A DNA stretch of 64,000 nt from Clostridia bacterium (GTDB taxonomy: Bacteria; Bacillota; Clostridia; Oscillospirales; CAG-272). A model generated the notes under the pieces. That model ran no database searches and was not told where the DNA came from. It was given only the letters and a program-made list of their open reading frames with translations. Below, one piece after another: positions 7,544 through 9,712 of this stretch (positions within the stretch are counted from its first letter, which is position 1; the number at the start of each line of letters is the position of its first letter). The translations under genes were made by a program, and so were the position numbers. The stretch is taken from NCBI GenBank assembly GCA_017408585.1, contig JAFQUJ010000004.1, positions 12,662 to 76,661 of the forward strand, written 5' to 3'.

Positions 7544-9496
7544 ATGTTTGAAGAAGAAAAAGTGTATGGCGACGAGCAGATACAGGTCCTAGAGGGTCTT
7601 GAGGCGGTAAGAAAAAGACCGGGCATGTATATAGGAACGACCTCGGCAAGAGGCTTGCACCACCTTGTTTACGAGATAGTAGATAACTCGATAGACGAGG
7701 CAATGGCGAGCTTTTGTGACAGGATTGAGGTAATATTGCTCCCAGACGGAAGCGTATCCGTACAGGACAATGGTAGAGGCGCGCCGGCGGGCGTGAACGC
7801 AAAGACGGGCCGTCCTACTCTCGAGGTAATATTCACCGTGCTCCATGCAGGCGGAAAGTTTGGCGGAGGCGGATACAAGATATCGGGAGGACTACACGGA
7901 GTTGGAGCGAGCGTAGTAAATGCGCTATCTGACTGGCTCGAGGTAGAGAACTGCCACGAGGGAAAGAGATATACCGAGCGCTTTGAGAGAGGCGCAGTTG
8001 CAAGAGATTTCAAATGCGAGGGCGACGCACCCGAGGGCAAGCATGGCTTATATGTACGCTTTAAGCCGGATGCAACAATATTTGAAGAGGTAGTGTTTGA
8101 CTATGAAACGCTACTCACCAGACTAAGAGAGCAAGCCTTTTTGAACGCAGGAATAAGAATTATCTTGCGTGATGAAAGAGAAAAGATAGAAATAGAGAAC
8201 GAGGACGGCACAAGGAGCGAGGCATACCGAGAGGACGACCTTTGCTTTGAGGGTGGAATTAAGGAATTTGTAACATATGTAAACGGACTAAAGCACGCGA
8301 ACATGGTTCATGAAAATGTCATTTACATGAAGGCGGAGAAGGGCGACATAACCGCTGAGGTTGCAATGCAATATAATGATACCTATGCCGAAACGATAGT
8401 TACCTTTGCGAACAATATGTCAACAATCGACGGTGGAACACACGAGGTTGGCTTTAAGAACGCAATAACCAAGGTAACCAATATGTACGCAAGAAAGCTG
8501 GGACTGTTAAAGGAGTCCGAGCCTAACCTAAAGAGCGAGGATACAAGAGAAGGACTTACCGCCATAGTATCTGTAAAATTGCCCGACGCTCAGTTTGAGA
8601 GCCAAACAAAGGCAAAGCTGGGAAATAGCGAGGTTAGAGCAATAGTAGATAATATCGTTGTCGAGAAGCTAAGCGAATTTTACGAGGAGAACCCCGACAT
8701 AGCCAAGCTAATTATAGGCAAGGCGTGTGACGCAGCGAAGGCAAGAGAGGCAGCGCGTAGAGCAAGAGATTTGGCTCGACGCAAGGGCGTGTTTGGAGGC
8801 AACTCGCTCCCCGGCAAGCTAGCTGACTGTCAGGACAGACGAAGCGAGTACACAGAGCTGTTCTTGGTAGAGGGAGATTCTGCGGGAGGAAGCGCAAAGA
8901 GCGGACGAGATAGCCGATTCCAAGCGATTTTGCCACTTCGTGGAAAGGTTCTCAATGTAGAGAAGAGCCGAATTGATAAGGTATATTCAAACGAGTCACT
9001 CATTCCAATTATTCAAGCCCTCGGCTGTGGAATTGGAGAGGAATTCGACCCAAGCAAGCTAAGATACGGAAAGATAATCATAATGGCGGATGCCGATGTT
9101 GACGGAAGCCACATACAAGTGCTTTTGCTAACCTTCTTCTTCCGTCATATGCGTCAGCTAATCGAGGACGGACACATTTTCCTCGCAAAGCCACCGCTAT
9201 ATAAGATAACCAAGGGAAAAATTGAGCGTTACGCGTTTAGTGACGAGGAAAGAGATAAAATCTTCGAGGAAATCGGTGGCGGTAGCGCAGAGCGCTATAA
9301 AGGTCTTGGAGAAATGGATAAGGAGCAATTGTGGGAAACAACAATGGACCCCGAAACCAGAACACTTATCAAGGTCGAAATAGGCGACGCAATGAAGTGC
9401 GACGAGGTATTCTCACTTCTCATGGGCGATAAGGTTGAGCCCCGTAGGGAATTTATAGAGCGAAACGCGAGGTTTGTAGAAAACCTGGATATTTAG
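7544..9496 (+). CDS. gyrB: DNA gyrase subunit B
   Basis: Trimmed to [31 protein letters not shown] at 7544 (RBS ggacggaagga). GHKL ATPase, Toprim EGDSAGG and [10 protein letters not shown] motifs. Confidence 0.97.
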
Positions 9497-9712
9497 TCGA
9501 AGCGACTAAATATCCAATGAATTGCAACTGCGTTGCATGAATCGACACTGCGTGTCATGAATTGTTCCTGCGGAACATGAATTGCCTTTGGCATTTAGCT
9601 GGTTGCAATTCAATTCATGCGCCTATGGCGCAATTCATTGAGCGAAGCGAAAATTTATGACGGCTTGCCGTCGTTTCATGCGATTTATCGCAATTCATGC
9701 GCAAATCACAGA
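9486..9712. repeat. CATGAAT-linked hairpin array (gyrB 3' end to gyrA)
   Basis: Starts with a 14-bp perfect inverted repeat at 9486-9516. Then tgcaac/gttgca, gacac/gtgtc, gttcc/ggaac and tgcc/ggca hairpins. Centre tttagctggttgcaattcaattcatg. Then cgcc/ggcg, acggc/gccgt and cgat/atcg hairpins. Confidence 0.85.

Follow-up and report, generated by a model that had tools for sequence, protein, structure and literature searches.

What is the row of short hairpins between gyrB and gyrA in the genome of an uncultured gut member of the Clostridia, and to what kind of element does it belong? The row occupies positions 9486–9712 of a 64-kb stretch of DNA, the replication-origin region of that genome, and the whole of this stretch is called the window below. 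It is an array in which small stems of changing sequence alternate with a conserved linker. We favor, with a probability of about 60%, the reading that it represents a two-armed hairpin array in a "solo" copy, one without a gene, and that such an array would be the cis partner of a selfish-looking cassette resembling the intervening sequences (IVS) of 23S rRNA. The gene of this cassette encodes a protein of family PF05635, "23S rRNA intervening sequence protein" (IVP), and a complete cassette was found 4.6 kb upstream of the array in the window.

Architecture of the array and of the complete cassette

The array between gyrB and gyrA has the following parts.

9486–9516, plus strand: hairpin H0, with a 14-bp stem and the loop AAG; the 5' arm is made of the final gyrB codons and the stop codon (TAG, 9494–9496) and the 3' arm is their inverted copy
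9517–9593, plus strand: left arm of four units with the linker ATGAAT/TGAAT; a Gut-1-like arm
9594–9612, plus strand: asymmetric center, an AT-rich spacer TTTAGCTGGT followed by TGCAATTCA
9613–9709, plus strand: right arm of five units with the reverse-complement linker ATTCA(TG)

The left-arm hairpins are TGCAAC-TGC-GTTGCA, GACAC-TGC-GTGTC, TGTTCC-TGC-GGAACA, and TGCC-TTT-GGCA. The TGCAATTCA part of the center is complementary to the first linker and the beginning of the first stem (TGAATTGCA). The right arm contains the conserved GAGCGAAGCGA unit and terminates in CAAATCAC; the GGAGCGAAGCGAGAAATCATG unit recurs in right arms that adjoin IVP genes. The segment 9517–9709 has the full two-armed layout, with four left linkers, a center, and five right linkers, three of which are mutated (ATTCATT, ATTTATG, and TTTCATG). 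No PF05635 gene begins 10–30 nt beyond the final right-arm unit, a place taken by the gyrA leader and gyrA, so this array is a solo copy. Compared with shuffled sequences, the folding of 9486–9712 gave z = -5.6 as DNA and z = -5.2 as RNA.

The complete cassette upstream reads as follows.

4681–4719, plus strand: H0 of the sister array; its 18-bp stem is the dnaN 3' end (stop codon 4693–4695) with its inverted copy
4720–4883, plus strand: complete two-armed array with four left units, center, three right units, and a terminal ATTCATT
4896–5249, plus strand: IVP gene of 117 amino acids; PF05635 (E = 7e-25) and TIGR02436, "four helix bundle protein"

This gene-linked array ends 12 nt before the IVP start codon, and the folding of 4675–4885 gave z = -7.6 against shuffles. 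The first-pass annotation of this DNA had reported that the linker polarity flips at a conserved center, which was confirmed by comparing 4795–4823 with 9591–9619. It had named no cognate gene in the window, where a candidate is present: the PF05635 gene directly follows the array at 4720–4883, and its family is tightly linked to such arrays. A single long hairpin formed by both arms was considered and rejected, as the left and right stems are unrelated and the linkers alone are complementary. Loop-loop complementarity between mirror positions of the two arms was not seen by eye in the array at 4681, and neither a search nor inspection by eye of IVP-linked arrays found a conserved promoter in the center.

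Linkage between hairpin arrays and IVP genes

We examined the link between arrays and IVP genes from both sides, using loci from other genomes, which are numbered with an L (L001–L012 being the relatives compared at gyrB-gyrA). Seven loci found by the array pattern alone (L101, L133, L135, L152, L170, L181, and L004) carry an IVP gene no more than about 150 nt after the right arm. Conversely, 80 IVP loci were fetched by protein similarity alone, and 76 of them were scored for two-armed arrays. Nearly all IVP genes whose products are at least 58% identical to that of the window have at least three copies of ATGAAT/ATTCAT in the 300 nt upstream. The linker density at IVP loci was 6.1 per kb upstream, 2.0 per kb downstream, and 0.62 per kb elsewhere. 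More distant IVP clades lack CATGAAT and show the same architecture with GCTAAAT, ATGAAAT, TTGAAAT, GTGAAAT, AGTTTTATT, or GTTATGA as the linker; the right arm always bears the reverse complement of the linker, typically in 4 + 4 copies. A linker-agnostic score for two arms (a k-mer repeated in one stretch, then its reverse complement repeated) reached at least 12 in 45 of 76 IVP upstream regions and in 5 of 967 control windows. Furthermore, in a neighbor-joining protein tree each IVP clade, of which there are at least five, has its own linker. The nearest solved structure to the IVP of the window is 2RLD from Bacteroides, an entry with five chains (E = 2e-46).

The position of the array relative to the gene is also regular. 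In cassettes that are free of fusion to a gene upstream, H0 is directly preceded by a sigma-70-like promoter (TTGACA-17-TATAAT in L216; extended -10 boxes in L208, L203, L201, and L205). As read from these positions, the array would form the 5' leader of the IVP mRNA, and in the window the arrays would share a transcript with dnaN or with gyrB and gyrA. Fourteen cassettes with the linker GTGAAAT, ATGAAAT, or GCTAAAT were found immediately downstream of a tRNA gene (in L262, of the RNase P RNA gene) and its terminator-like hairpin (L233, L235, L237, L246, L249–L251, L255, L257, L259, L260, L262, L268, and L280). Many CATGAAT-type cassettes are found at the 3' end of a rumA-like RNA methyltransferase gene.

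In locus L123 (about 4380–4620), the promoter, H0, and array are almost identical to those of the L208 and L216 IVP cassettes, and a different gene (MKKKVLF...) follows at the same spacing from the ribosome-binding site; the locus has no IVP match. The IVP protein had no match in PADLOC, and a defense-system reading was rejected. Within the literature searchable, no paper was found that links PF05635, TIGR02436, or S23p genes to hairpin arrays or to Gut-1. A relationship of IVP to HEPN proteins found no confirmation in the literature search and is not claimed here.

Variation and pairing of the hairpin units

When 185,579 species genomes were searched for CATGAAT in three copies spaced 18–21 nt apart, two kinds of matches came up. 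One comprised many tandem repeats that are unrelated to the arrays; their units are identical, and their stems, at about 2 bp, are at the level of chance. The other comprised about 50 loci in metagenome-assembled genomes (MAGs) of gut Clostridia, in which the units are all different yet foldable, with mean stems of 4–5 bp. The unit statistics were taken from 250 units of the window and 52 other gut-Clostridia loci (53 loci). Of these units, 202 were distinct, and they contained 93 distinct stems of at least 4 bp. The perfect stem averaged 4.17 bp, compared with 2.27 bp after shuffling. Most units start with TG (217 of 250, 87%) and end in C(A) (242 of 250, 97%), and in 193 of 250 (77%) the hairpin fills the entire segment between linkers. 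Across genera, the canonical layout is ATGAATTGC..., then (hairpin-CATGAAT) three to four times, a hairpin, about 8 nt of AT-rich sequence, GGCAATTCA, (ATTCATG-hairpin) three to four times, and an end in CAATTCAT or CAAATCATT. The center is asymmetric; therefore, the element has an orientation.

These counts bear out the first-pass description of a modular structured repeat: what is conserved is the linker together with foldability, and the stems are free to differ in sequence. The alternative that all units are copies of a few fixed palindromes fails against the 93 stems. The statement that stems differ between units stood across the 53 loci and needs correction for the window itself. Of its 21 units only 13 are distinct, as one mosaic element is copied, partly inverted and partly truncated, in the arrays at 6493, 25799, 28640, and 54540.

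To follow single base pairs, we aligned 13 arrays from different species that lie at the same site, the 3' end of the rumA-like methyltransferase gene. The linkers were invariant, and 95.6% of the cells were paired. Two-sided changes occurred in 12 of 36 pairs (31 cells), and one-sided changes in 8 cells; none of 500 shuffles paired as well. When the pairing partners were shifted by 1–3 columns, pairing fell to 24–46%. Mutations that freely break pairing in same-site arrays, which would have spoken against a structured repeat, are thus not what these arrays show; the 31 changes are compensatory double changes. A long-range helix was also evident in this set: TGAATTGCSS, which comprises the first linker and the beginning of the first stem, pairs with SSGCAATTCA in the center, with GC to CG covariation. 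Mismatch-free hairpins numbered 230 of 271, and internal G·T mismatches (11) were on a par with A·C mismatches (9).

The loops were surveyed in 46 arrays of all linker types, read on the sense strand of the gene. In the left arm, TNC made up 44 of 62 triloops and TNNC 25 of 49 tetraloops; in the right arm, GNA made up 29 of 53 triloops and GNNA 21 of 39 tetraloops. Triloops dominate, a C-G pair closes the loop in 180 of 213 hairpins, and UUCG and GNRA loops are not favored. The loops of 2–4 nt noted earlier are therefore not free but polar and nearly always C-G closed. As DNA, mini-hairpins of the types C(GNA)G and C(GNNA)G have unusual stability, GCGAAGC being an example; GCGAAGC is present in a conserved right-arm unit and in the window at 9641–9647. 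A reading of the C-TTC-G loops as UUCG tetraloops was rejected, as that register breaks the remaining stem.

Three features are unusual for RNA, namely the near-perfect, strand-symmetric stems, the polar kind of loop, and the host-derived H0. Because the stems are perfect and strand-symmetric, covariation alone is no proof of RNA function here, and this caution applies wherever DNA palindromes can self-correct.

The H0 boundary hairpin

A hairpin of at least 8 bp that ends no more than 10 nt from the first linker adjoins the left end of 28 of 43 arrays, compared with 5 of 215 random positions. Its 5' arm is host sequence. At gyrB, it consists of the final codons with the stop codon; at dnaN, of the last five codons, both in the window and in L004, whose sequences differ and are each matched by an inverted copy; at rumA-like genes, of the conserved C-terminal codons, matched species by species. 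Downstream of tRNA genes, H0 is the terminator hairpin. We infer that H0 is more simply made by templated copying (strand switching at a seed hairpin) than by point mutation under selection, because a perfect complement of 10–18 nt to a coding sequence is unlikely to arise through point mutation and selection.

Insertion and turnover of the arrays

The nearest genomes in the species-representative collection are animal-gut MAGs labeled Eubacteriales or Oscillospiraceae, with GyrB identities to the window of 95% (L001), 92% (L003), and 89% (L002 and L004). The gyrB-gyrA spacer is only 15–20 nt long in L005–L012 (GyrB identity 80–84%). In L001 and L003, it holds an unrelated repeat with CCTTG motifs; in L002, heptamer repeats and a small gene; in L004, another CATGAAT array. 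The right boundary of the 9486 array adjoins gyrA leader sequence that is also found in L001. Similarly, the dnaN-recF spacer is 13 nt in L001 versus about 620 nt in the window, where it holds the array 4720–4883 and the gene 4896–5249. The arrays are insertions that are absent from or different in close relatives, and they turn over fast.

The unrelated repeat (CCTTG/CCTTC between GC-rich hairpins) lies at 8000–8130 in L001, 3210–3330 in L003, and 3975–4085 in L002; it is bounded in L001 by TTTAAGGG...CCCTTAAA and occupies the same gyrB-gyrA or dnaN-recF spots in the sister species.

When compared with miniature inverted-repeat transposable elements (MITEs), the arrays have termini, ATGAATTGC...GCAATTCAT, and the left flank is copied inverted as H0. 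No direct repeat that could be a target-site duplication flanked any junction read. A link to phages was considered and rejected: only 3 of 93 pattern matches in viral contigs were true arrays, all on short contigs.

Relationship to the Gut-1 motif

The arms of these arrays are diverged relatives of Gut-1 (RF01706), a motif described in 2010, so the suggestion of a new class of repeat is not supported. Gut-1 matches were read with E-value reporting, the Rfam gathering score being 50 bits. The matches in the window stay below that score and are as follows.

9515–9588, plus strand: 38.3 bits, the best in the window
4811–4884, minus strand: 36.1 bits
6460–6548 and 54507–54595, plus strand: 32.8 bits each
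28737–28809, minus strand: 29.1 bits
25870–25942, minus strand: 28.5 bits
9607–9681, minus strand: 20.3 bits, the right arm of the 9486 array

The arms of the window align end to end with model positions 1–77. They share with Gut-1 three consecutive hairpins, variable covarying stems, a conserved A-rich linker with a GAA core, and an origin in gut Clostridia. However, their linker is CAUGAAU(UG) and not the consensus GUGAAAU, and their scores of 20–38 bits are under the cut-off. In addition, the Rfam model covers one arm and has no gene association, whereas the motif of the window is one arm of an inverted pair in a PF05635 cassette.

The GUGAAAU consensus is the linker of a different IVP clade. 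Of 18 GTGAAAT or ATGAAAT loci, 17 have a true Gut-1 match (51–78 bits) located 150–230 nt upstream of the IVP start, and four such loci have a minus-strand match in the right arm as well. Just upstream, 15 of the true Gut-1 loci have a tRNA gene and one more has an RNase P RNA gene. Weinberg et al. derived Gut-1 from 43 human-gut metagenome fragments and considered it certainly an RNA, based on covariation, and probably not cis-regulatory; no organism, neighboring gene, or function was given (PMC2864571). The flanks of the seed alignment already show the layout of tRNA, terminator, left arm, center, and right arm. The supplements of that study make no mention of the PF05635 family, and no later paper mentioning the Gut-1 motif was found within the literature searchable. 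The array is thus a linker variant of a known but unexplained motif; within the same literature, its two-armed layout and its gene partner appear to be new. Gut-1, which has been in Rfam since 2010 without an organism, gene, or function, gains a host group, namely uncultured Oscillospirales and Christensenellales from the guts of animals and humans. It also gains a partner gene and a complete architecture with two inverted arms, a center, and a boundary hairpin.

Heptamer repeats in other phyla and comparison with known systems

A cross-phylum set of 80 loci (L376–L455) was collected with the 2RLD sequence as the query. It included Bacteroidota, Cyanobacteria, Chloroflexota, Acidobacteriota, Nitrospirota, Deltaproteobacteria, Beggiatoaceae, and Clostridia, and the IVP proteins were 59–100% identical to the query, most of them 60–70%. 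A 6-mer repeated at least twice upstream of the IVP gene, with its reverse complement at least twice downstream, was found in 60 of 75 loci versus 1 of 69 displaced controls. The repeat is mostly a heptamer, AATTGAN, with CAGTTGA, AATGCAR, and GTGAATG in other loci, and the gene is bracketed by the inverted arrays. Among the genera with such arrays around their IVP genes are Chamaesiphon, Richelia, Halobeggiatoa, and Bacteroides. We infer that the Gut-1-type linker is the same sort of repeat of about 7 nt, with hairpins inserted between the copies.

We propose tentatively, at less than even odds, that PF05635/TIGR02436 genes and inverted arrays of a repeat of about 7 nt form an unrecognized cross-phylum class of autonomous selfish cassettes, in which a ring-shaped protein reads its own repeat. 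The arrays of this class would be plain heptamers in Bacteroidota, Cyanobacteria, and others, and would take the hairpin-interleaved Gut-1 form in gut Clostridia. If this is true, Gut-1 RNAs and many orphan intergenic heptamer or hairpin arrays would be the cis elements of such cassettes or their gene-less relics, and the origin of rRNA intervening sequences would be explained. The very widespread family PF05635, known only from rRNA intervening sequences and distantly as Avd, gains a candidate nucleic-acid partner that varies by clade. If IVP reads the repeat, the origin of rRNA intervening sequences, the meaning of the heptamer arrays, and the spread of the cassettes become directly testable.

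Among known systems, the 23S rRNA IVS of Leptospira and Coxiella has the same protein family and an open reading frame (ORF) bracketed by inverted repeats (PMC4990558). In the Coxiella IVS, GACAGAT heptamers lie just upstream of the S23p ORF and RNase III excises the IVS; its authors regard it as a selfish element whose mobility mechanism is unknown (PMC4990558). In contrast, the cassettes described here lie outside rRNA, after tRNA genes, RNase P RNA genes, and the 3' ends of rumA-like genes, dnaN, and gyrB; in addition, their repeats are interleaved with hairpins and both arms are upstream of the gene. The 9486 array itself lies between gyrB and gyrA, and at curated thresholds Rfam yields only tRNA and no rRNA in the window. 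Members of the family occur elsewhere too, as Zhang et al. in 2013 listed 18 PF05635-family genes in cas loci, one of them between cmr3 and cmr2 (PMC3936711). Avd of the diversity-generating retroelements, an IVP homolog, is a ring-forming four-helix bundle that works with a structured RNA (PMC10053308; PMC6182149); unlike in those retroelements, no reverse transcriptase, template repeat, or variable repeat was seen beside the IVP genes of the window and of the loci read.

Among repeats, the repetitive extragenic palindromes (REP), their bacterial interspersed mosaic elements (BIME), and the REP doublets (REPIN) that go with RAYT are alike in being intergenic, hairpin-forming, arranged in mosaic clusters of alternating orientation, and present in many copies per genome. 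The REP palindrome is conserved, whereas here the palindrome varies (202 distinct units of 250) and the linker is conserved; this opposition had been pointed out in the first-pass annotation and is upheld by 93 stems in 250 units. As that annotation also stated, transposase, RAYT, and Cas genes were absent, as was reverse transcriptase, from the 46 ORFs scanned in the 64-kb window; a Y1 transposase was neither among these ORFs nor seen beside arrays in the fetched loci. The cyanobacterial short tandemly repeated repetitive (STRR) sequences and the TAACTGA repeats of Beggiatoaceae (PMC4679880), which we liken by description, are also intergenic 7-nt tandem arrays of unknown function; however, they have no interleaved hairpins, and PMC4679880 makes no link to IVP genes. 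A reading as a CRISPR array was rejected: the conserved repeat is 7–8 nt, the "spacers" are palindromes of 11–15 nt, and the window has no cas genes.

Eukaryotic foldback transposons have long inverted termini of short tandem repeats and many gene-less copies, and they resemble the arrays in this respect. They belong to a different domain of life and have no known homology to the arrays, whose mobility is putative.

Proposed mechanism and rival explanations

The arrays are inserted; their linker does not vary inside an IVP clade and changes from one clade to another; their stems vary yet pair; and they are located in the 5' leader of the gene. A complete cassette consists of H0, a left arm of 3–5 units (a linker of about 7 nt with a short hairpin), the asymmetric center, the right arm, a ribosome-binding site, and the gene for the 117-amino-acid four-helix bundle. 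Under the cassette reading, the linker would be a functional string of letters, read by a ring-shaped IVP oligomer, paired between the arms, or both, and the hairpins would be spacers whose sole requirement is to fold. The folded array and H0 may separate the cassette from the host transcript, like the RNase III-cut stems of rRNA intervening sequences. Solo arrays would be non-autonomous copies, which may be inert or mildly stabilizing structured spacers in operons, in this case gyrB/gyrA. The perfection of the stems would be kept largely by a templated process at the DNA level (template switching within palindromes) and not by stepwise compensation of the RNA type. The evidence touches on each of the three functions suggested in the first-pass annotation (RNA processing or stability, a protein-binding scaffold, and a hairpin-generating process), and any of them may apply.

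Several points weigh against this reading. That the array is bound, processed, or moved is a conjecture drawn from its letters. The co-variation of linker and clade could stem from common descent alone. The evidence on the level of action is divided between RNA and single-stranded DNA: location in the leader and the promoters favor RNA, and the perfect Watson-Crick stems, the lack of a G·U excess, the C(GNA)G/C(GNNA)G loops, and the templated H0 point to DNA. The polarity of the loops (TNC left, GNA right) is explained by none of the models that we tested. Contigs with an identical GyrB, of which there were two among the matches listed, are 100% identical to the window and show no variation. 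The right arm of the 9486 copy is decaying, so that this copy may do nothing. Finally, an IVP partner was not found for a second array family of the window (linker TCGATATG, described below), as one metagenome scan showed no IVP gene near any of 120 loci.

The evidence for DNA bears on a rival that we consider unlikely, in which the array is a foldback- or MITE-like mobile element. Here the arms are terminal inverted repeats in which binding sites stand in tandem, and hairpin formation takes place in single-stranded DNA. The element is moved by IVP or by an enzyme whose gene lies elsewhere, and the RNA is incidental. The presence/absence differences and the different elements at the same spot in sister species agree with it, as do the many solo and mosaic copies per genome and the heptamer clades, whose gene sits between inverted arrays as between terminal inverted repeats. 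The IVP identity of 60–70% across phyla suggests horizontal spread, and the perfect, strand-symmetric stems with G·T equal to A·C, the DNA-stable C(GNA)G type of loop, and an H0 that resembles templated inverted copying of flanking host sequence all fit. However, no junction read had a target-site duplication, a catalytic motif is not known for the protein family, and the scanned ORFs of the window included no transposase. Moreover, the Gut-1-type cassettes carry both arms on one side of the gene, and their fixed distance and orientation to the ribosome-binding site suit a leader better. The opposite rival places everything at the RNA level and strikes us as quite improbable: Gut-1 is a regulatory leader or small RNA that acts on IVP translation or on the stability or processing of neighboring mRNA, it has no role in mobility, and solo copies are remnants after gene loss. 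It draws on the RNA verdict of Weinberg et al., on the strong covariation in the 13 same-site arrays, on the promoters upstream and the ribosome-binding site directly after the array, and on the RNase III excision of rRNA intervening sequences with the same gene family (PMC4990558). Nevertheless, there is no excess of G·U over A·C, triloops dominate, and UUCG/GNRA loops are not favored; as the right arm is the left one in exact reverse complement, a single RNA-binding specificity could not serve for the two. Solo arrays outnumber the gene-linked one by 7:1 in the window, and gene loss would need an improbably clean deletion to leave the solo 9486 array because its right end abuts the gyrA leader shared with L001.

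We give very little credence to a REP/BIME-like repeat moved by a RAYT or an IS200/IS605-type Y1 transposase elsewhere in the genome, with a coincidental IVP link, for example, through a shared preference for insertion sites. The arrays are indeed intergenic, hairpin-rich, and mosaic, with inverted pairs and conserved short motifs beside the hairpin foot, and the enzyme search covered 64 kb of the genome. But the palindromes are not conserved, against the defining trait of REP; no Y1 transposase was in the scanned ORFs of the window or seen beside arrays in the fetched loci; and the match of linker to IVP clade across at least five clades is hard to call coincidence.

Other arrays and features of the window

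All eight arrays that had been listed in the window were recovered. On both strands, CATGAAT occurs 33 times versus 11.5 ± 3.4 expected, and none of 100 shuffles reached 33; this enrichment of CATGAAT/ATTCATG is about 3-fold, and 27 of the 33 matches lie inside the eight clusters with a spacing of 16–20 nt. Besides the arrays at 9486 and 4681, the clusters are as follows.

6493–6665, plus strand: solo mosaic array of the CATGAAT family with the termini GGAATGAAT...ATTCATTCC
20590–20725, no strand assigned: partial solo array with three ATTCATG linkers, between convergent CotH-family genes
25799–25948, minus strand: solo array joined to CATTCCR heptamer repeats
28537–28873, no strand assigned: composite of TCGATATG-linker units, a CATGAAT-type array, and a 16-mer tandem repeat
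44634–44700, plus strand: short array with a left arm only, of 2–3 units, between the pth and flavin reductase genes
54507–54718, plus strand: composite of a CATGAAT left arm, two center hairpins, and then four TCGATATG units

The element at 6493–6665 is copied at 28640–28797 (inverted), 25799–25930, and 54540–54640.

The second array family has the same design with the linker TCGATATG, which occurs 20 times in the window versus 2.07 expected. Its arrays lie at 28537–28602 (minus), 34644–34713 (minus), 43725–43791 (minus), and 54653–54718 (plus), and they are fused with CATGAAT-type units and heptamers as composite mosaics. The metagenome scan for this linker returned mostly unrelated coding or tandem repeats, with true-looking arrays in 2 of 14 loci read. 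Solo tandem heptamers, CATTCCA/CATTCCG, are found at 25919–25948 and 43835–43903; in reverse complement they correspond to the GGAATG-type heptamers between which, in inverted orientation, the L002 IVP gene lies.

The main genes of the replication-origin region are the following, with a remA-like gene between recF and gyrB.

1434–2816: dnaA
3547–4695: dnaN
5319–6410: recF
7463–9496: gyrB
9786–12368: gyrA
13178–14308: recA

Another hairpin motif, TTCTTTTGYTWAAGAAAAA, occurs 21 times in the window versus 0.26 expected (1387–1405, 3497–3515, 5288–5306, 9741–9759, 13133–13151, 14419–14437, 17374–17392, 23537–23555, 36498–36516, 45519–45537, and others). It lies mostly 30–45 nt before start codons (dnaA, dnaN, recF, gyrA, recA, recX, and pgsA), is found upstream of gyrA in L001 too, and resembles a lineage-specific leader or promoter-proximal element. 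A 327-amino-acid protein encoded at 51232–52215 has an N-terminal TIR domain (PF13676, E = 8e-19) and is possibly defense-related. Three other repeats were seen. A 125-bp tandem repeat (3.2 copies, 79% match) occupies 16476–16875 between a miaB-like radical-SAM gene and pgsA, and the 16-nt tandem repeat CGCACTTGCGAAGCAC (4.3 copies) at 28805–28873 adjoins the hairpin array there. Between the remA-like gene and gyrB, at about 6900–7330, repeats of about 99 nt and about 72 nt (96–97% identical) were found, of which short pieces are common to L002–L004.

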